Origin: a virus
Direction: 5' to 3' (one strand)
Length of the DNA: 14,725 bases
Virus genome (UHGV): UHGV-1738303
How positions within the stretch are numbered: position 1 is the first letter of the stretch; each line of letters starts with the position of its first letter. Below are positions 2,103 to 14,725 of this stretch, piece by piece. The notes beneath the pieces were generated by a model. It was given only the letters and a program-made list of their open reading frames with translations, searched no databases and was not told the DNA's origin. The translations under genes were made by a program, and so were the position numbers.

Positions 2103-4337
2103 ATGATTAAGACAATTAAAAAATCAAACGGTACAGTAGTAAGCTTTGACCCAGAAAGACTGAATAAGTGGGCATCATGGGCAGATAAACGTGGAATTAT
2201 CTGGTCAGAAGTCACTATGGAAGCTATGAAACGTGTCTATGAGGGTTGCACTACAAAAGAGATGCACCAAGCCATGATTGATGTTTGTGTTGATAAACAA
2301 ACTCAAGAGTACTCAGATATGGCTGGACGACTGCTTTTGGGTATTATCTACAAAGAAGCCTTTGGAGGCTTTACTAAGGTTCCTACGCTGATTACCTTCG
2401 TTAAAAATATGGAGAGAGCAGGACTTTGGGAGAAGATGGACTATTCACAGGAAGAGCTTGAATATCTGCAAGGTTACATCGTACACTCAAAAGATATCTC
2501 TTACGGCTATGCAGTATTGAAACAGTTTAGGGACAAGTATGGTATCCGTGATATTAAAACGGGAAGACTTTTTGAGTCACCACAATTTATGTTTATGGGT
2601 ATGGCTATGAAAGCCTTTGAGAAGCAACCAAAGCACCGTAGACTGCAAGATGTTATCAAGCTGTACACTTACCTATCTGACCTGAAGATTAACGCTCCTA
2701 CGCCTTATTTAAACGGTTTGAGGGCAACTAAATCAGGTTATGCGTCATGCTGCTTGATTAAGGCAAACGATACCGCTGAATCACTTGGTATTGCTGCAAA
2801 GGTTGCTTATGATATGACTACAAAGCAAGCTGGTATTGGGATGCTGATGGAAACTCGCACCATTGGTGATGGTATCCGTCAAAATACTATTGAGCATATG
2901 GGTAAACTGCCTTATTACAAGCTTGTACGTTCATCTGTAGAGGCAAACAAACAAAAGAGCCGTGGTGGTTCAGCTAACAACTTCTACACTGCTCTAGACC
3001 CGCAGATTGAAGATTTACTGCGTTTGAAGCACCCTACAACGGTTCCTTCGAAACGTATTAATGAGATGGACTACTCCTTTGGTACAAATGATTATTTCTG
3101 GCAGTGTGTTCAGTATGATACAGATTGGTTGCTATTCTCTTACAAAGATGCACCAAAACTCTATGACATGTTCTACACAGCATCTGCTGATGAGTTTGCT
3201 ATGGCAGTTGGTCACGCAGTACATTCAGGAGTTAAGCACAGACGAGTCAAGGCTCGTGAAATTGCTAAGCTGTTTATTCAACAGCGTTATGCTACAGGTC
3301 GTGTGTATCCATTCTTCACTAACAACGCAAACACACATACACCATTTAAAGAACCATTGAAGATGTCAAATCTTTGTATGGAAATTGTGTTGCCAGTGTA
3401 TGGTTTTGAGAAAGAGACAGACCTTTACAGAGACGATGCTGTGAAAGAGGATGGTGAGGTGGCTCTTTGCTTCCTAGCTAGTTTGGTTGCAGGGAGAATT
3501 TCAGAAGATGAATACGCTGACGTTGCTTATTATGCTCTTGCAATGGTTGACTCCGTTATTGACCTTATGGATTATCCGTATCCGTCGATGCGTAACCATG
3601 TTCAGAAGCGTCGTTCTGTTGGGATTGGCCTTACAAATGTGGCTCATTACCTTGCGAAGAACTACGTGAACTACTCTTCACGAGCAGGTAAAACGAAGCT
3701 TCATGAACTTGCAGAGATGCACTCTTACTATCTACATGAAGCCTCTCTGAGACTTGCTAAAGAGCGTGGAGTTCCAGAGTACATGAAGTTCACTAAGTAT
3801 CCTGAAGGCTGGGTTCCTCCAAAGACAGCCAACAAGAAGATTGATGAGAAGCATGATGCAAAACTACGATATGATTGGGATGACTTAGCACAACGTATCA
3901 AAGAAAATGGTGGAATCCGAAACTCTGTATTAGAAGCTTACATGCCTAATGAGAGTTCTTCACTAGCAACTAATACGACAAATGGCTTGTACCCAATTCG
4001 TGACTTTATTTTAACTAAAAAGTCTGCAACTGGTAACGTGTTGTTTATTGTTCCAGATTATGAAGAGTTGAAGTATGTATATGAAATTGCTTGGGGTATT
4101 GACACCTTTGACCTGATTGATTGTTATGCAATTGTTCAAAAGTTCACTGGTCAAGCTATCTCTTCAGATTTCTATGTTGACTACGCAAAAGCTAAGAAGG
4201 TATCATTGGCTCAAGCTTTGAAGTACATGATTTATGCCAACTCGGTAGGTATGAAAACCATGTACTACCTTAACAGTCGCATTGGTGTAGGTAAATCTGC
4301 ACTGCAAGATGCTTATTGCGAGGGCTGCGGTGTTTAG
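2103..4337 (+). CDS. nrdA: Ribonucleoside-diphosphate reductase large (alpha) subunit, class Ia
   Basis: 744 aa; N-terminal ATP-cone-like segment (IKTIKKSNGTVVSFDPERLNKWASW), active-site NLCMEIVLP (Cys-x-Glu), C-terminal redox-shuttle cysteines YCEGCGV; length and motif order typical of NrdA/NrdE. RBS AGGA 7 nt upstream. Confidence 0.93.
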   Translation: MIKTIKKSNGTVVSFDPERLNKWASWADKRGIIWSEVTMEAMKRVYEGCTTKEMHQAMIDVCVDKQTQEYSDMAGRLLLGIIYKEAFGGFTKVPTLITFVKNMERAGLWEKMDYSQEELEYLQGYIVHSKDISYGYAVLKQFRDKYGIRDIKTGRLFESPQFMFMGMAMKAFEKQPKHRRLQDVIKLYTYLSDLKINAPTPYLNGLRATKSGYASCCLIKANDTAESLGIAAKVAYDMTTKQAGIGMLMETRTIGDGIRQNTIEHMGKLPYYKLVRSSVEANKQKSRGGSANNFYTALDPQIEDLLRLKHPTTVPSKRINEMDYSFGTNDYFWQCVQYDTDWLLFSYKDAPKLYDMFYTASADEFAMAVGHAVHSGVKHRRVKAREIAKLFIQQRYATGRVYPFFTNNANTHTPFKEPLKMSNLCMEIVLPVYGFEKETDLYRDDAVKEDGEVALCFLASLVAGRISEDEYADVAYYALAMVDSVIDLMDYPYPSMRNHVQKRRSVGIGLTNVAHYLAKNYVNYSSRAGKTKLHELAEMHSYYLHEASLRLAKERGVPEYMKFTKYPEGWVPPKTANKKIDEKHDAKLRYDWDDLAQRIKENGGIRNSVLEAYMPNESSSLATNTTNGLYPIRDFILTKKSATGNVLFIVPDYEELKYVYEIAWGIDTFDLIDCYAIVQKFTGQAISSDFYVDYAKAKKVSLAQALKYMIYANSVGMKTMYYLNSRIGVGKSALQDAYCEGCGV

Positions 4338-4350
4338 TTTTAACAACTAT

Positions 4351-4370
4351 GAGGGTCGTAAAAGACCCTC
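4351..4370 (+). other. Perfect 7-bp inverted repeat (RNA hairpin) without U-tract, between nrdA stop and next ORF
   Basis: GAGGGTC (4351-4357) / gtaaaa / GACCCTC (4364-4370); followed by TAAAAATAAC rather than a T-run, so more likely an RNA processing or stability element than a terminator. Confidence 0.4.
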
Positions 4371-4392
4371 TAAAAATAACTTTGGAGAGAGT

Positions 4393-4650
4393 ATGAAGGA
4401 CTTAATAGCAAATCATGAGTGGCCAATTTATCTGCTCTACAAACCTCGGAAAACGTTGTACTATGTGAGCAGCACAGGTATCATGATAAAGCAGAATAAT
4501 GACTTATGGGTCACTGGAGCCTCTTACATCTCTACAGCAGATGGTAAAATCTATGCAAGACCTTATGAGATGTTTAACAAAGAAAATTGGGAAGTTTTAG
4601 ACAGAAAACAAGCCTTAGAAATGATAAAGAAAGGAGAAATCACGCTATGA
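4393..4650 (+). CDS. Hypothetical small protein between nrdA and nrdB
   Basis: ATG at 4393 with GGAGAGAG immediately upstream; the track ORF from 4309 is rejected because it overlaps the nrdA 3' end and the hairpin. 85 aa. Its stop overlaps the nrdB start (ATGA at 4647-4650). Confidence 0.5.
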   Translation: MKDLIANHEWPIYLLYKPRKTLYYVSSTGIMIKQNNDLWVTGASYISTADGKIYARPYEMFNKENWEVLDRKQALEMIKKGEITL

Positions 4651-6209: not shown

Positions 6210-8354
6210 ATGAACAAAGTACAGATTATTAAAAAGAATGGCTCACTTGAAGAACCTGATATCAAAAAAGTTTTAGCAGCAGTCACAAAGTCAGCTAACA
6301 GAGTTGGTTATAAAGAGCTTCCACCAGATGTTACTCAAGCTCTTGAGTCAGCATTCATGAGGATTTTGGTAAAGTCCACTAAGCAGAATAATTTGCTTAT
6401 CTCGGTAAATGATATTCACAGTATTGTTGAAGGTGCTTTGGCAGAAGTTAATCACGAGATTTATGAGTCTTACTCAACATACAGAAATTACCGTAAAGAG
6501 GTTGCTCAAAATTGGGATGAACTCTACCAGAAGACTAAAGATACACTCTTCTTAGGTGACCGTGAAAATGCTAACTTTGACAGCAGTTTAATTTCTACGA
6601 AAGGTTCAATTATCCGTGGTTACCTGACTAAAGAAATCTTTAAACAGTACCATTTAACACCAGAGGAACTTGAAGCCATTGAAAAAGGATTTATCTATAT
6701 CCATGATTTAAGAGACCTAATTTTTGGTGGTATCAACTGTTGCCTGTTTGACATTGGTAAAGTCCTGAAAGGTGGCTTTGAAATGTCTGGCATCGAATAT
6801 TGTGAACCAAAGTCTGTACTGTCGGCCTTACAGGTTATAGGTGACGTAGTTCTTTCAGCAACTGCACAGCAATTTGGTGGTTTTACTTTAGCAGAGATTG
6901 ATAAGGTACTTGTGCCGTATGCTAAGAAGTCTCTACGCTATCATGCTGAGAAAGCAGCATCTTATGGTATTCCTAAAGAACATTACCACAATTATGTCAT
7001 GGAGCAGCTACAGATTGAACTGACTCAAGGTTTCCAGTCACTTGAAATGAAACTAAACACTGTACCTTGTAGCCGTGGGGATTTTGCATTCACAACTTTG
7101 ACATTCGGGCTACTTGACTCAGATATGTCCAATGAAGATAACCGACTGCAATATATGATTGCAAGTACTCTCCTAGATGTTCGTATGAATGGACAAGGTA
7201 AGAGCAAGAAACCTGTTGTATTCCCTAAACTGGTTTATATTTATGACCAGAAGAGACATAATGAGAATATCTGTCAAGGCCACCTGTACAGTAAAGCTAT
7301 AGAGTGTTGCTCTAAAGCGATGTATCCAGATTTCTTAAGTGTATCTGGTCATGGTGCTGTAGCAGAGGCTTTTGAGCGTTCTGGCAAGGTTATTTCGCCG
7401 ATGGGTTGCCGAGCGTTCTTATCTCCGTATCTTAACGAGAATGGGGAAGAGTTCTACGTTGGTCGTGCTAACATTGGTGCTGTATCTTTGAACTTACCAA
7501 TGATTTACCAGTATTCTAAAGAGAATGGTTTAGATTTCTGGAAAGAGCTTGATAAGTACCTAGAGATGATTCGCAGTTTCCACAAGAAACGCTACGAAAT
7601 GATTGCTAATATGCCAGCAAGTTCTAACCCTCTTGCATTCACACAAGGTGGTCTGTACAAAGGGACTAAGAAACCTACTGACAAGGTTGGTTGGGATATC
7701 GTGAAGTCCTTCACAGCTTCTTTTGGGGTTACTGCTCTTGATGAACTGTCTGTTCTTGCTGAAGGTAAACGACTTCATGAAGTTGGAAGATATAGTTTTG
7801 CATACGATGTTCTGGAATACATCAACATGAAAACTGAAGAGTTTAAGAACGAAGATGGCTTCTTGTATGCGGTATATGGCACTCCAGCAGAATCACTTTG
7901 TGGAACTCAGTTAAAACAGTTCAGAGATATGTTTGGCGTTATTAAAGGTGTCTCTGACAAGGAATACTTTACAAACAGTTTCCATATGAATGTTGCAGCA
8001 GACATCTCACCATTTGAGAAGCAGGACTTAGAAGAGCCATTCTTCCATATCTGTAGAGGTGGCAGAATCCAGTATGTAAGGGTAGCTAACCCAGAAAACT
8101 TAACAGCACTTAAAAGTTGTATTACCAGAGGGATGTTGAAGGGTTTTTATCAGGGACTTAACTTTGACTTAGCAATCTGTGAACATTGTGGTAACAGACC
8201 AAAGGCTGATGTTGAAGAATGTGAGGTTTGCCATTCACATGATATCTCTGTGATTAACAGGGTGTGCGGGTATCTTGGGTGGACCAAGATTAAAGGTGAA
8301 TCCCGAATGAACGATGCAAAAATCGCTGAGATTCGTGATAGAGTCTCTATGTAA
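6210..8354 (+). CDS. nrdD: Anaerobic ribonucleoside-triphosphate reductase, class III
   Basis: 714 aa; N-terminal ATP-cone-like KVQIIKKNGSLEEPDIKKV; C-terminal Zn-ribbon cysteines CEHCGNRPKADVEECEVCHSH followed by the glycyl-radical motif RVCGYLGW. Continuous reading frame, no intron. Confidence 0.93.
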   Translation: MNKVQIIKKNGSLEEPDIKKVLAAVTKSANRVGYKELPPDVTQALESAFMRILVKSTKQNNLLISVNDIHSIVEGALAEVNHEIYESYSTYRNYRKEVAQNWDELYQKTKDTLFLGDRENANFDSSLISTKGSIIRGYLTKEIFKQYHLTPEELEAIEKGFIYIHDLRDLIFGGINCCLFDIGKVLKGGFEMSGIEYCEPKSVLSALQVIGDVVLSATAQQFGGFTLAEIDKVLVPYAKKSLRYHAEKAASYGIPKEHYHNYVMEQLQIELTQGFQSLEMKLNTVPCSRGDFAFTTLTFGLLDSDMSNEDNRLQYMIASTLLDVRMNGQGKSKKPVVFPKLVYIYDQKRHNENICQGHLYSKAIECCSKAMYPDFLSVSGHGAVAEAFERSGKVISPMGCRAFLSPYLNENGEEFYVGRANIGAVSLNLPMIYQYSKENGLDFWKELDKYLEMIRSFHKKRYEMIANMPASSNPLAFTQGGLYKGTKKPTDKVGWDIVKSFTASFGVTALDELSVLAEGKRLHEVGRYSFAYDVLEYINMKTEEFKNEDGFLYAVYGTPAESLCGTQLKQFRDMFGVIKGVSDKEYFTNSFHMNVAADISPFEKQDLEEPFFHICRGGRIQYVRVANPENLTALKSCITRGMLKGFYQGLNFDLAICEHCGNRPKADVEECEVCHSHDISVINRVCGYLGWTKIKGESRMNDAKIAEIRDRVSM

Positions 8355-10578: not shown

Positions 10579-10590
10579 GCAGATACTATA

Positions 10591-10620
10591 AGGGAACTGT
10601 AAAGGTTCCCTTTTTATTTT
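10591..10620 (+). terminator. Intrinsic terminator hairpin
   Basis: AGGGAAC (10591-10597) / tgtaaag / GTTCCCT (10605-10611), followed by TTTTTATTTT. Confidence 0.65.
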
Positions 10621-10629
10621 GGAGATAAC

Positions 10630-11145
10630 ATGTATCTGTCAAACCTGAAACGTTCTGCTGCAATGTCAGTGTTAAGACTCAGTTTTGATGAGCGTCAAGA
10701 GTTTATAGACTCCCACAAATATGACCCTTCAAATTCTAATCACATGGTTCTTTGGAATCGTGATAACTTCCGTGAAAGAGCACTTGTCCGTTATTACCCA
10801 CACTACACAATAGATAACCTGTATGAATGGTGTGTTGTGAAGAACACCATTGCAACACTGAACAATCTTTGCAGGTATACGGGTAAGCAAACATTTACAT
10901 TAGGTCATCACAAACCTGTTACAAAAGGTGGTGAACATCACTGTGCAAACTGGTTTATCCAAACTAAAGCTGATAACCAGAAGCAAGGAGATAGCCTCCT
11001 AAGTATCCCTAAGATGACCTATGAAGAGCAAGAGAAATATATCAAAAATAATATGCCAGATGTGCTTGACAACAACTATACAGATTTGGCAATATCTCTC
11101 CTGTTGAAGTTCGAGACAGTTTATAGGGCAACTTATAATGGCTAA
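10630..11145 (+). CDS. HNH-family endonuclease (possible free-standing homing endonuclease)
   Basis: 171 aa; HNH-like core CRYTGKQTFTLGHHKPVTKGGEHHCANWFIQTKADNQKQGD (His-His pair, GG, Asn ... Asn); GGAGA 4 nt upstream of the ATG. Confidence 0.65.
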   Translation: MYLSNLKRSAAMSVLRLSFDERQEFIDSHKYDPSNSNHMVLWNRDNFRERALVRYYPHYTIDNLYEWCVVKNTIATLNNLCRYTGKQTFTLGHHKPVTKGGEHHCANWFIQTKADNQKQGDSLLSIPKMTYEEQEKYIKNNMPDVLDNNYTDLAISLLLKFETVYRATYNG

Positions 11146-11416
11146 AGAAAAGTGGGAGATTTTACCATTAGTCAGTGAAGGAGGTAATGGTTGTGAAATG
11201 TACATGATACGTGGTCATGTTCCAGAGCCAATTGCACTTGAGATGGTAAACAACTTTACAGATGGTTCTTACAAAGACTTAGGCGAACCAACTGTCAAGC
11301 AACAATGGGTTAAACCTGTACCAGACAGCACAGGTAACTGTAGTGTACTTTATCACGTTGTAGACCCTGCAAAATGCAAATCTGCAATGGCAGTAACAAA
11401 CGTAACTTTTGATTGA
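11138..11416 (+). CDS. Hypothetical protein
   Basis: 92-codon ORF overlapping the HNH stop by 8 nt; its TGA stop forms part of the TGAGAGAGA motif preceding the next gene. Confidence 0.45.
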   Translation: MAKEKWEILPLVSEGGNGCEMYMIRGHVPEPIALEMVNNFTDGSYKDLGEPTVKQQWVKPVPDSTGNCSVLYHVVDPAKCKSAMAVTNVTFD

Positions 11417-11427
11417 GAGAGAAAACT

Positions 11428-12309
11428 ATGAAAACATCTATCCGTGTTACAGTTCATTCACCAACTAAAGGAACTCATGAAGAAGAGTTTAACATCATCC
11501 AATTTCCTTCTGGTGAGATTGGTGGACACTTTTCGCCAGAGTTTGTTGATTTCACTGCTTATGCAGCATCATCCATCAACAATGTGATTATGATTGTAAA
11601 AGGTTATGATAAGGATACATTGTTTGCTGTGGCACTTGCTAAAGAAGCAATTGATGATTTAATTCCTCATGATTATGCTTTAAAGACTGTCATCTTTTAC
11701 TACTTACCAAATGCACGTTATGACCGTCACATGTTTAAAGGCGACGCAGCAGCTTTAAAGGTTTTTGCTAAACAGGTAAATGCAATGGGATTTGGTGCAG
11801 TCTGTGCAGTTGACCCTCACAGTTACGTTCCAGATAACCTGTTTAACTGCTTCCAGAGTATTCCTCAAAAGGAGATTGCAGTCCACTATGCAAATGACCC
11901 ACTGGTTGATTACTTAGTAGCCCCAGATGCAGGTGCTGCTAAGAAGGTTGCAGAGACCGCTAAAGAGGTGGATAAACCATATATCACAATGTCTAAGGTG
12001 CGTAACCTTAAGACTGGTGAAATTACTGGTATGCGAATCCTTGATGATGTTGATTTGACAGATAAAACCGTCATGATTCTGGATGATATCTGTGATGGTG
12101 GTCGAACCTTCATAGAAGCAGCTAAGCATCTTCGTGAAGCAGGTGCAAAACGTGTGGAACTCTATGTAACACATGGTATCTTCTCTAAAGATGTTGAAAA
12201 CCTTCTTGACAATGGCATTGACCACATCTACACTACAAACTCTTTAGGGGAAGCTAAAGACCGTGGCTTAACACATTATGGTCAAGTTACTGTAGCAAAC
12301 CTTGATTGA
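11428..12309 (+). CDS. Ribose-phosphate pyrophosphokinase (Prs) family protein, divergent; candidate ADP-ribose pyrophosphokinase (Adps-like) of an NAD+ reconstitution pathway
   Basis: 293 aa from the ATG at 11428 (track TTG at 11413 rejected). Prs-family blocks: YLPNARYDR (cf. PYFGYARQDR), VDPHS (cf. VDLHA), VAPDAGAAKKVAETAK, VMILDDICDGGRTFIEAAKHLREAGAKRVELYVTHGIFS (cf. [38 protein letters not shown]). The ribose-5-phosphate loop reads DGGRT rather than canonical DTGGT, and the GFFD motif is missing. Confidence 0.85.
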   Translation: MKTSIRVTVHSPTKGTHEEEFNIIQFPSGEIGGHFSPEFVDFTAYAASSINNVIMIVKGYDKDTLFAVALAKEAIDDLIPHDYALKTVIFYYLPNARYDRHMFKGDAAALKVFAKQVNAMGFGAVCAVDPHSYVPDNLFNCFQSIPQKEIAVHYANDPLVDYLVAPDAGAAKKVAETAKEVDKPYITMSKVRNLKTGEITGMRILDDVDLTDKTVMILDDICDGGRTFIEAAKHLREAGAKRVELYVTHGIFSKDVENLLDNGIDHIYTTNSLGEAKDRGLTHYGQVTVANLD

Positions 12310-12318
12310 AACTTTATA

Positions 12319-12339
12319 GGGGCTTAAAAGCCCCATTTT
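12319..12339 (+). terminator. Hairpin (weak intrinsic terminator) between the Prs-like and NAMPT-like genes
   Basis: GGGGCT (12319-12324) / taaa / AGCCCC (12329-12334), followed by ATTTT. Confidence 0.5.
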
Positions 12340-12354
12340 GAGAGAGATTAAAAG

Positions 12355-14136
12355 ATGACTAAATCACTTTATGCAGTACCAGCAGGTTTAAATGCAGATG
12401 CTTACAAATCTGGTCATGTTTACCAGTATCCTAGCGCAACAGAGTACTTGATGTTCAATCTGACACCACGTAGCGACAAATGGTTTAACAGCCCCTTAGC
12501 AATTGACGGTGTAGTAGCTTTTGGTATTCAACGTTTTGTTAAAGATTACTTGATAGACCACTGGAATGCCACTTTCTTTGAACGTGATAAAAAAGAAGCA
12601 ATTGACGAAATCTTAGAAGTCATGAATGGTGTTCTGGGTAAAGATGCTATAGGTCGAGAGCATTGGGAAGCACTTCACGACTTAGGCTATCTACCAGTTG
12701 AAGTATACGCTGTAGAAGAAGGCACAGTTGTCCCTATGCGTGTTCCGATGATTGTTTTCCAGAACACTGTTTCAGGTTTCCATTGGGTAGCAGGTTATCT
12801 GGAAGATGCTTTCTCTGCTGAGATTTGGAAGGCTTGTACCATTGCAACTATTGCATTGCACTACAAACGTATCTGTAAGAAGTGGGCTGACCTTACTTGT
12901 GACAACGACTTGCATTTACCTTATCAGTGCCATGACTTTGCTATGCGTGGTATGTCCGGCTTTACTGATGACGCATTTAACGCTGTAGGCCACTTAACCA
13001 GCTTTAAAGGAACTGATAGCTTTCCTGCTGTGTATACGGCTAAACGAATCTATGGACAGTCCTACCCAATCTCTGATATTGGTAGCTCTGTACCAGCCAC
13101 TGAGCACTCTGTAATGTGTGCAAACATTGCTTGGGAAGGTGGTAATGAGTTGATTGAAGAAGAAAGACGCTTTAAAGGTGAGTTACAAACCTTCCGTCGT
13201 TTCTTAACAGAAACTTACCCAACGGGTATTGCAAGTATTGTTTCAGATACTTATAACTTCTGGAGAACTGTGTCAGAAATCTTACCAGCACTCCGTAAAG
13301 AAATTATGGAACGTGACGGTAAGCTGGTAATTCGCCCTGACTCTGGAGACCCTGTACATATTGTCACAGGTTACAAAGCAATCCACTTAGAGTGTGCTAA
13401 AAAGGCTTATTACGAGCACCTAAGCAAGCTAGAGGCAAGTGATACAATGCTGAACTCTGTCCTGAACATGAAGCTTGAAAACATTAACTATGGTATTGCT
13501 GGATGGCTACTGTCAGAAGGCTACGAAATGGTTGTTGACAGAGAAGACTTTGAAGTTGCTGATACGGTGATGTTGAAGAATGCTTATATGGTTGGTTCTG
13601 CAAACGTTGTAACACGTCCTGTAGCTGAGATTGATGGGGCTATTAAGACACTGTATAACATCTTTGGAGGAACTATCAACTCTAAAGGTTTTAAAGTACT
13701 GGATGAGCATATCGGGCTTATTTATGGCGACTCTATCACGTTGGAACGTGCAAACGAAATACTGAAGCGTTTGTATGAAATGGGTTTTGCAAGCTCTAAC
13801 GTAGTGTTTGGTGTAGGTTCTTACACTTACCAGTACATGACTCGTGACACCTTTGCATTTGCTGTCAAAGCAACTCTTGCAAGCATTGGTGGTAAAGAGA
13901 TTATGCTTGCAAAAGACCCTAAAACAGATAGTGGTGTTAAGAAGTCTGCTTTTGGTGGTGTAGCACCTATGTGGGATGGTGAAAATCTGAAAGCTGTAGA
14001 TGGCTATGGGTTCCAGAGCTTTGCAGATGCACTTGAACACCCAGCTTGTGCTTTGCGTCTAGTCTTTAGCGACTCTGAGCAGTTCGGTTACACAACTCTT
14101 GGTGATATTCGAAATAATATTGACAAGCAGCTTTAA
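12355..14136 (+). CDS. Nicotinamide phosphoribosyltransferase (NAMPT/NadV) family protein, long form; candidate nicotinamide ADP-ribose transferase (Namat-like)
   Basis: 593 aa; NAMPT blocks LNADAYKSGH (cf. LATDSYKVTH), HDFAMRG (cf. HDFGYRG), SFKGTDS (cf. NFKGTDT), VPATEHS (cf. VPAAEHS), IVSDTYN (cf. VVSDSYD), VIRPDSGDP (cf. IIRPDSGNP), LIYGDSI, FGVGS. About 100 extra residues relative to typical 470-495 aa NAMPTs, apparently inserted between the RPDSGDP and GD motifs. Confidence 0.88.
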   Translation: MTKSLYAVPAGLNADAYKSGHVYQYPSATEYLMFNLTPRSDKWFNSPLAIDGVVAFGIQRFVKDYLIDHWNATFFERDKKEAIDEILEVMNGVLGKDAIGREHWEALHDLGYLPVEVYAVEEGTVVPMRVPMIVFQNTVSGFHWVAGYLEDAFSAEIWKACTIATIALHYKRICKKWADLTCDNDLHLPYQCHDFAMRGMSGFTDDAFNAVGHLTSFKGTDSFPAVYTAKRIYGQSYPISDIGSSVPATEHSVMCANIAWEGGNELIEEERRFKGELQTFRRFLTETYPTGIASIVSDTYNFWRTVSEILPALRKEIMERDGKLVIRPDSGDPVHIVTGYKAIHLECAKKAYYEHLSKLEASDTMLNSVLNMKLENINYGIAGWLLSEGYEMVVDREDFEVADTVMLKNAYMVGSANVVTRPVAEIDGAIKTLYNIFGGTINSKGFKVLDEHIGLIYGDSITLERANEILKRLYEMGFASSNVVFGVGSYTYQYMTRDTFAFAVKATLASIGGKEIMLAKDPKTDSGVKKSAFGGVAPMWDGENLKAVDGYGFQSFADALEHPACALRLVFSDSEQFGYTTLGDIRNNIDKQL

Positions 14137-14150
14137 AAGTATATGATAAG

Positions 14151-14175
14151 AGGCTCCTACGGGAGCCTTTTTAAT
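14151..14175 (+). terminator. Intrinsic terminator hairpin after the NAMPT-like gene
   Basis: GAGGCTCC (14151-14158) / tacg / GGAGCCT (14163-14169), followed by TTTTT; the stem is the arm-swapped relative of the hairpin at 2062-2080. Confidence 0.65.
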
Positions 14176-14190
14176 TTCTGGAGAAAACTA

Positions 14191-14725
14191 TGAAAATCAA
14201 AGAGATGAACATTAACGTTGTCCTAGAAGAACGTTGGGAAAACATTAAGAAACCTGAAAATGGTCATAAATTCCTTAACAAAATTTTAGTAGCAGCTAAA
14301 GAAGAACTAACGGGTAAGGTTGCAGCAGCAATCACAATAAAGGTTTGTGTAAAGGGTCTTTCAGACAATCACCAATTTGCACTTGACGAGTTTAAAGAAA
14401 GGGCAGTTATTCGTGAACTGTCATGTAACGCAGTAGATGCTCAGAAAGAAGCTGGAAAAGAGAACATCCCATTCCATGTGCATTTACCTACTCGTTTTGA
14501 GCCTTACTTTGAAGTTCGTGATTTTGGAACTGGATTAACTCATGACAAAGTTATGAGCTTGTACCTAAACTACGGGGCTTCTACAAAGAATGACTCCAAT
14601 GACTACATTGGTGCAATGGGTATCGGCTCAAAGTCACCATTTGCAATTGCTCAGTCATTCACAGTATCTAGCTATGTTGATGGTGTTGTTAATAAGTACT
14701 CTGTTTACCTTGAGAATGGTATCCC
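14191..14725 (+). CDS. rIIA: rIIA-like protein, N-terminal GHKL/Bergerat ATPase-like domain (3' end beyond the window)
   Basis: GGAGAAA 5 nt upstream of the ATG at 14191; frame open to the window end. Motifs IRELSCNAVDAQ, FEVRDFGTGL and DYIGAMGIGSKSPF match the N-box and G-boxes as I recall them in the T4 rIIA N-terminal domain (recalled, not aligned). Confidence 0.75.

Follow-up and report, generated by a model that had tools for sequence, protein, structure and literature searches.

NAD+ reconstitution pathway 1 (NARP1) is made of two phage proteins, Adps and Namat, and its founding example is the gene pair 79-80 of bacteriophage Bas63 (Osterman et al., bioRxiv 10.1101/2024.02.11.579819). 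Deletion of bas63_0079/0080 renders Bas63 sensitive to SIR2-HerA, the efficiency of plating falling ~20-fold, and the protection of this phage is independent of the host genes pncC and nadR (bioRxiv 10.1101/2024.02.11.579819). In the same study the Bas63 Adps purified poorly; the SPbetaL1 enzyme produced ADPR-PP from ADPR and ATP, and gave no product with the substrate of Prs. A Namat gene was located nearby in 97% of the members of the Adps clade (Osterman et al., bioRxiv 10.1101/2024.02.11.579819). Inactive mutants have been described in two of these enzymes, K162A in SPbetaL1 (bioRxiv 10.1101/2024.02.11.579819) and K185A in ICP1 (PMC13586617). Namat, for its part, retains nicotinamide-PRPP chemistry in vitro (PMC12774641).

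A 2026 structural study described ICP1 Adps as a PRPS-like hexamer (PMC13586617). ADPR occupies the groove that takes up ATP and ribose-5-phosphate (R5P) in PRPS, where it is contacted by F18 of the neighbouring subunit, R87, F92, H121, D161, D212 and D213, and the ATP donor is gripped by the PP loop (C215-S220), the K185 hairpin, F221 and F223. The allosteric sites of PRPS are degenerate in this enzyme, and the C-terminal alpha11-alpha12 module is gone (PMC13586617).

The window analysed here, that is, the whole stretch of 14,725 nucleotides from virus genome UHGV-1738303, carries its major genes on the plus strand, namely nrdA, nrdB, a glutaredoxin-like ORF, nrdD, nrdG, several small ORFs, a Prs-like gene and, 45 nt further downstream, a Nampt-like gene (Table 1). 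Positions 11000-14300 are 100% identical to Felixounavirus LF82P1 (OZ035762.1), a phage whose name points to isolation on E. coli LF82. Between nrdA and namat the window has the same gene order as Bas63 (MZ501086.1), and lengths of 516, 279, 882 and 1782 nt recur in the genes of both. The closest described system is the Adps of Bas63 (JohannRWettstein, bas63_0079, QXV81770.1), a phage of the same genus, which occupies the same position in the order nrdAB-nrdDG-adps-namat, also has 293 residues and carries the same loop, DDICDGGRT. The C-terminal domains of the two Adps proteins are 95% identical, and their Namat partners (bas63_0080 in Bas63) 98%; the two phages differ in the N-terminal domain of Adps (aa 1-175), only 67% identical, and in nrdD, which has an intron with a homing endonuclease in Bas63 and none in the window. 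Namat is 43-50% identical to that of ICP1.

Table 1. Positions in the window of the adps-namat pair and of features within and around it.
Feature	Position	Strand	Basis
adps, ADP-ribose pyrophosphate synthetase (Prs-like), 293 aa	11428..12309	+	homology, PHROG, Pfam, model
Adps N-terminal domain, aa 1-175, old recombinant allele relative to Bas63	11428..11952	+	nucleotide identity, dS
DPHSYVPDNLFN, aa 129-140: conserved His131, and NLFN replacing Prs GFFD	11812..11847	+	alignments
Lys190 codon, catalytic lysine equivalent to ICP1 K185 / SPbetaL1 K162	11995..11997	+	alignment mapping
Loop DDICDGGRT, aa 219-227; counterpart of the ICP1 Adps PP loop and of the Prs loop for the R5P 5-phosphate	12082..12108	+	alignment
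Intergenic hairpin GGGGCT-TAAA-AGCCCC, adps/namat spacer	12312..12331	+	seen directly in sequence
namat, nicotinamide ADP-ribose transferase (Nampt-like), 593 aa	12355..14136	+	PHROG 448 at 3.6e-202; 98% identical to Bas63 Namat
Terminator-like hairpin, transcription-unit end	14148..14171	+	10-bp stem then T-run, 12 nt past namat stop; consensus match only

We consider it very probable that the Prs-like gene is a phage Adps which, together with Namat, would rebuild NAD+ from the fragments left by NAD-destroying defences. An Adps of this kind has already been described, from the very phage genus in which the enzyme was discovered, and the feature is therefore a known one. The gene resembles the described Adps in its sequence, synteny, conserved residues and fold, and by homology it would share their chemistry and their anti-defence role.

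The product of adps matches PHROG 619 at 1.6e-96 and the Pfam families Pribosyltran and Pribosyl_synth. It is 78% identical to Bas63 Adps and 23% to E. coli Prs; the enzymes that provided the in vitro and structural data are 30% (SPbetaL1) and 33-37% (ICP1) identical to it. The published table of Adps proteins (Table S1) contains 63 entries with the exact N-terminal 21-mer of the window protein, those displayed being flagged as Namat-associated, and the entry for wV8, as read from the printed sequence, matches the window protein at all but two residues. By identity, by this published clade table and by loop type, the protein is placed in the phage-specific Adps clade, apart from cellular Prs. 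The ATG at 11428 is preceded by a Shine-Dalgarno-like GAGAGAG run, as is the ATG of namat, and agrees with the annotation of the 882-nt Bas63 gene; the mechanical ORF start, TTG 11413, is probably not the real start of adps.

The feature that had drawn attention to this gene in the earlier note was a loop reading DDICDGGRT where E. coli Prs has DDMIDTGGT, and three independent alignments bear this out with no shift of register. In a HMMER comparison with solved PRPS structures, the loop aligns gap-free with DDIISTGGT of Sulfolobus and Thermoplasma and with DDMADTCGT of the human enzyme. In a MAFFT alignment of E. coli Prs with six tested or published Adps, it lies opposite DDMIDTGGT (220-228), the corresponding loop of ICP1 being DDICDGAAS, and in an alignment of 152 sequences the register is unchanged. 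None of these alignments brings back a canonical DTGGT-equivalent, the outcome that would have refuted the observation. The same MAFFT alignment puts GFFD of E. coli (137-140) opposite NLFN (137-140), so that the reported lack of GFFD holds true; the site, however, is in the middle of the protein near the domain boundary, and not in the N-terminal region where it had been placed. The absence of GFFD is not by itself a pointer to a new substrate, since the aligned segment of the Sulfolobus PRPS also lacks it.

Canonical class I Prs enzymes bind the 5-phosphate of R5P with a D-T-x-G-T loop, and have a GFFD segment and a C-terminal module; the window protein has DGGRT and NLFN instead, and the module is gone. 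The comparison with E. coli Prs (b1207) shows the same balance of likeness and difference. Both proteins have the same fold, conserve R97/D99/R100, H131, D167, K190 and D219/D220, and would share ATP pyrophosphoryl-transfer chemistry, but DTGGT stands against DGGRT, GFFD against NLFN, and the E. coli protein is about 20 residues longer at its C-terminus. The acceptor of Prs is ribose-5-phosphate, whereas that of Adps orthologs, according to the literature, is ADP-ribose, and their allosteric sites are degenerate.

When 1.84 billion representative proteins were searched exhaustively with HMMER, 379 matched at E values up to 1e-30, and the best 150, a sample unbiased with respect to the motif, were analyzed. 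All 150 have an Adps-type loop, and exactly DDICDGGRT was found in 78 of them, so that the loop turns out to be the norm of the family and nothing peculiar to this phage. For a consensus conserved across a large family, chance is not at issue. Position 224, equivalent to T225 of Prs, is Gly in 145 of 149 representatives and Thr in none (0/149); position 226 is Arg in 88 of these 149, Gly in 28 and Ala in 21. GFFD was present in 0/149, the usual equivalents being ALIN, ALLN and ALID, while H131 is invariant and Lys190 is kept in all 149. Adps of phages with Gram-positive hosts have the loop DDLSS[FY]GGT instead. To this version belongs SPbetaL1 Adps (WIT26982.1), whose loop reads DDLSSFGGT. The DD pair, the His and the catalytic lysine (K162, the counterpart of K190) are common to this enzyme and the window protein, and neither loop contains the Prs Thr. 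When 80 phage loci were selected by the loop pattern itself, a scan that tests the link between loop and Namat and not the frequency of the loop, a Namat homolog in the same orientation lay downstream in 77 of them; the three remaining loci are truncated 1.2-1.5 kb past the gene.

GenBank labels the pair "ribose-phosphate pyrophosphokinase" and "nicotinamide phosphoribosyltransferase", implying NMN salvage, and the gene could accordingly be read as a genuine, unregulated PRPP synthetase, whose PRPP would serve a phage nicotinamide phosphoribosyltransferase in NMN synthesis. The fold is that of PRPS; the catalytic Lys, the DD pair and the His are conserved; the score against TIGR01251, the broad subfamily model for ribose-phosphate diphosphokinase, passes its cut-off (122 against 113 bits); in sequence, the nearest enzymes of solved structure are PRPP synthetases of archaea, among which that of Sulfolobus has no GFFD in the aligned segment; Namat keeps nicotinamide-PRPP chemistry in vitro (PMC12774641); and the GenBank names point the same way. 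The same protein, however, falls far below the cut-off of all NCBIfam Prs equivalog models (NF002095, 104.5 against 296 bits; NF003428, 54.9 against 536 bits), the Thr of DTGGT is missing throughout the 149 representatives, and the SPbetaL1 enzyme formed ADPR-PP from ADPR and nothing from the Prs substrate (bioRxiv 10.1101/2024.02.11.579819). Furthermore, NMN is not the product, because Bas63 overcomes SIR2-HerA in a host with a double deletion of pncC and nadR. Together, these data make a PRPP synthetase feeding NMN synthesis extremely improbable.

The Adps reading can be followed at the level of individual residues. The search for a solved Adps structure returned none among the PDB sequences or in the Foldseek library searched, and residues were mapped from the published text on the ICP1 structures and our own alignment. 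The functional residues of ICP1 are identical in the window protein at F26, R97, H131, D167, K190, D219, D220, D223 and F228, and two contacts with adenine in ICP1 are changed, F92 to M102 and F223 to E230. ICP1 Adps further resembles the window protein in its two-domain PRPS-like architecture, in the Namat gene directly downstream, in the framework DDICDG..[ST]F and in the loss of the alpha11-alpha12 module; it differs in the loop, DGAAS against DGGRT, and in the two adenine contacts just mentioned.

An AlphaFold2 model of the window Adps was obtained with a pLDDT of 95.4 and a pTM of 0.91, and its best Foldseek matches are PRPS enzymes, at a TM of about 0.75 and about 20% identity. In this model the loop connects the strand 214-222 with the helix 226-237, and there is no helix of at least 4 residues after residue 260 and no C-terminal helical module. 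In agreement with this, the alignment has a gap opposite the E. coli Prs segment MLAEAIRRISNEESIS, and the tail after H249 has 45 residues against 66. Without the allosteric sites and the C-terminal filament module of Prs, the enzyme probably escapes regulation of the Prs type. The loss of allosteric regulation by ADP and Pi, which the earlier note had offered as an alternative reading of the motif changes, likewise agrees with the degenerate allosteric sites of the ICP1 structures (PMC13586617).

In the proposed mechanism, NAD+ would first be cleaved to ADP-ribose and nicotinamide by a defence of the bacterium, for example SIR2-HerA, DSR2 or type I Thoeris, and Adps would then move the beta,gamma-pyrophosphate of ATP onto the 1'' hydroxyl of the terminal ribose of ADP-ribose, yielding ADPR-PP and AMP. 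By analogy with ICP1, ADP-ribose would lie in the interdomain groove, which in Prs is the site for ATP and ribose-5-phosphate, in contact with F26, R97, H131, D167, D219 and D220, and the DGGRT loop and the K190 hairpin would hold the ATP donor. The earlier note, which named phage Adps for comparison, had also suggested that the loop is altered in order to accommodate ADP-ribose as a bulkier acceptor. The acceptor that it named agrees with the published work on orthologs; the reason given for it does not, as the ICP1 loop holds the phosphates of the ATP donor and not the bigger acceptor.

This assignment of the loop also bears on whether the enzyme might have dual specificity and pyrophosphorylate both ADP-ribose and ribose-5-phosphate, a DGGRT-type loop perhaps still being able to grip the 5-phosphate. 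G225 and T227 of the Prs motif are kept in the loop, to which an Arg is added, the window protein belongs to an R226/E230 subtype that differs from the solved ICP1 enzyme (Ala, Phe), and Namat still uses PRPP in vitro (PMC12774641), all of which would be compatible with two acceptors. PRPP synthesis, however, has been reported for no Adps, and the SPbetaL1 enzyme, with its SFGGT loop, was negative; moreover, since the loop binds the donor ATP in the ICP1 structures, a separate ATP site for the R5P reaction would be missing. We regard dual specificity as very unlikely, and retain an Adps acting on ADP-ribose.

The main value of these results is in annotation, in view of the GenBank names quoted above; the finding itself adds no new biology. 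The pair would constitute a NARP1 counter-defence module that lets phages replicate in hosts that destroy their NAD+, and in phages intended for therapy the carriage of NARP1 would predict resistance to defences of the SIR2, DSR2 and Thoeris-I types. The motif DDICDGG[RGA]T combined with the absence of GFFD provides a simple and reliable means to discriminate Adps from Prs in phage genomes.

Four genes, the ORFs 10630-11145 and 11138-11416, adps and namat, lie between two terminator-like hairpins, one at 10590-10612 and the other at 14148-14171. The first of these ORFs (PHROG 3500, 171 aa) has a weak HNH-like match, and the second (PHROG 4726) codes for 92 aa; as both lie between the hairpin at 10590-10612 and adps, they may be co-transcribed with NARP1. 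Extended forms of NARP1 include a phosphatase gene (NARP1-AP, with the Macro-domain Adpp) or the gene of a RyR-domain glycosidase (RyDEP), neither of which is found among the four ORFs upstream of adps in the window, where no Macro or RyR Pfam domain was detected even at E values up to 10. The two nearest upstream ORFs are restricted to Ounavirinae loci. A role of these two ORFs as NARP1 accessories of the Adpp or RyDEP type was consequently rejected, given the lack of such domains and of any co-occurrence with the operon outside Ounavirinae, and for the same reasons the window appears to carry the minimal two-gene NARP1 and not the Adpp or RyDEP form.

The comparison with Bas63 revealed a further difference within adps. 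Nucleotide identity to Bas63 (L001:22747-23271) is 63-80% from the adps start codon to about 11950 and about 95% in the flanks, with sharp boundaries, a drop that corresponds to the two levels of amino-acid identity given above for the domains. The dS/dN values against Bas63 are 1.88/0.24 for the N-terminal segment, 0.40/0.026 for the C-terminal domain and 0.20/0.0065 for Namat. Recent positive selection on the N-terminal domain was considered and rejected, dN/dS being about 0.13 and dS saturated; these two values therefore indicate an old allele, borne by recombination and under purifying selection. The domain that diverges from the genetically tested Bas63 allele is the one that, by analogy with ICP1, would bind the adenosine of ADPR. 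Two old Adps alleles can be recognized in Felixounaviruses, with about 155 and 91 phage records when grouped by identity band, and other relatives combine the domains differently, including at least one further chimera, in Salmonella phage SBA-1781.

A second detail concerns positions 226 and 230 (codons at 12103-12117 of the window), which are separated by one helical turn. Glu230 accompanies Arg226 in 82 of the 88 representatives that have this Arg, and is found in 10 of the 61 that do not (Fisher p = 7e-23, not corrected for phylogeny). The window protein thus belongs to the majority R226/E230 subtype of Adps, and ICP1 Adps, the only one with a solved structure, carries Ala and Phe instead, the Phe at the position of E230 being part of a lid over the adenine of the donor (PMC13586617). 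Because ICP1 has Ala and Phe, with the Phe in the adenine lid, the R226/E230 subtype might hold the ATP donor differently. We think it unlikely that this subtype has a different hold on the donor, different kinetics or another nucleotide preference and that, separately, the N-terminal alleles are maintained by selection, for example through escape from a host factor that recognizes Adps, instead of representing neutral mosaicism. The new details, an old recombinant N-terminal allele and a coupled R226-E230 pair missing from the solved enzyme, are minor ones.

Some variation was also observed around the pair and in the genes that precede it. The adps-namat spacer of the window (12310-12354, 45 nt), which contains the intergenic hairpin, is uninterrupted. 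In some close relatives (L007:4391-4882 and L011) a 163-aa HNH-type ORF, taken on visual inspection for a homing endonuclease gene, lies between the two genes. The Namat of Felixounaviruses (593 aa) has about 84 residues more than that of ICP1 (488 aa), located at aa ~340-423 (window 13372-13623), and this insert separates two conserved halves of the NAPRTase domain; in other loci the Namat ORF ranges from about 480 to 656 aa. In Bas63, nrdD (L001:16631-19517) is annotated as two joined pieces around the homing endonuclease gene bas63_0068. The nrdD of the window (6210-8354) is one unbroken ORF of 714 aa, and blastn skips 745 nt of Bas63 at window positions 7407-7411. Finally, a 113-aa ORF (4309-4650) overlaps both the end of nrdA and the nrdB start that was called mechanically. 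In Bas63 the corresponding ORF (bas63_0063) is annotated and nrdB begins downstream of it, so that the TTG start of nrdB at 4587 is probably too far upstream.
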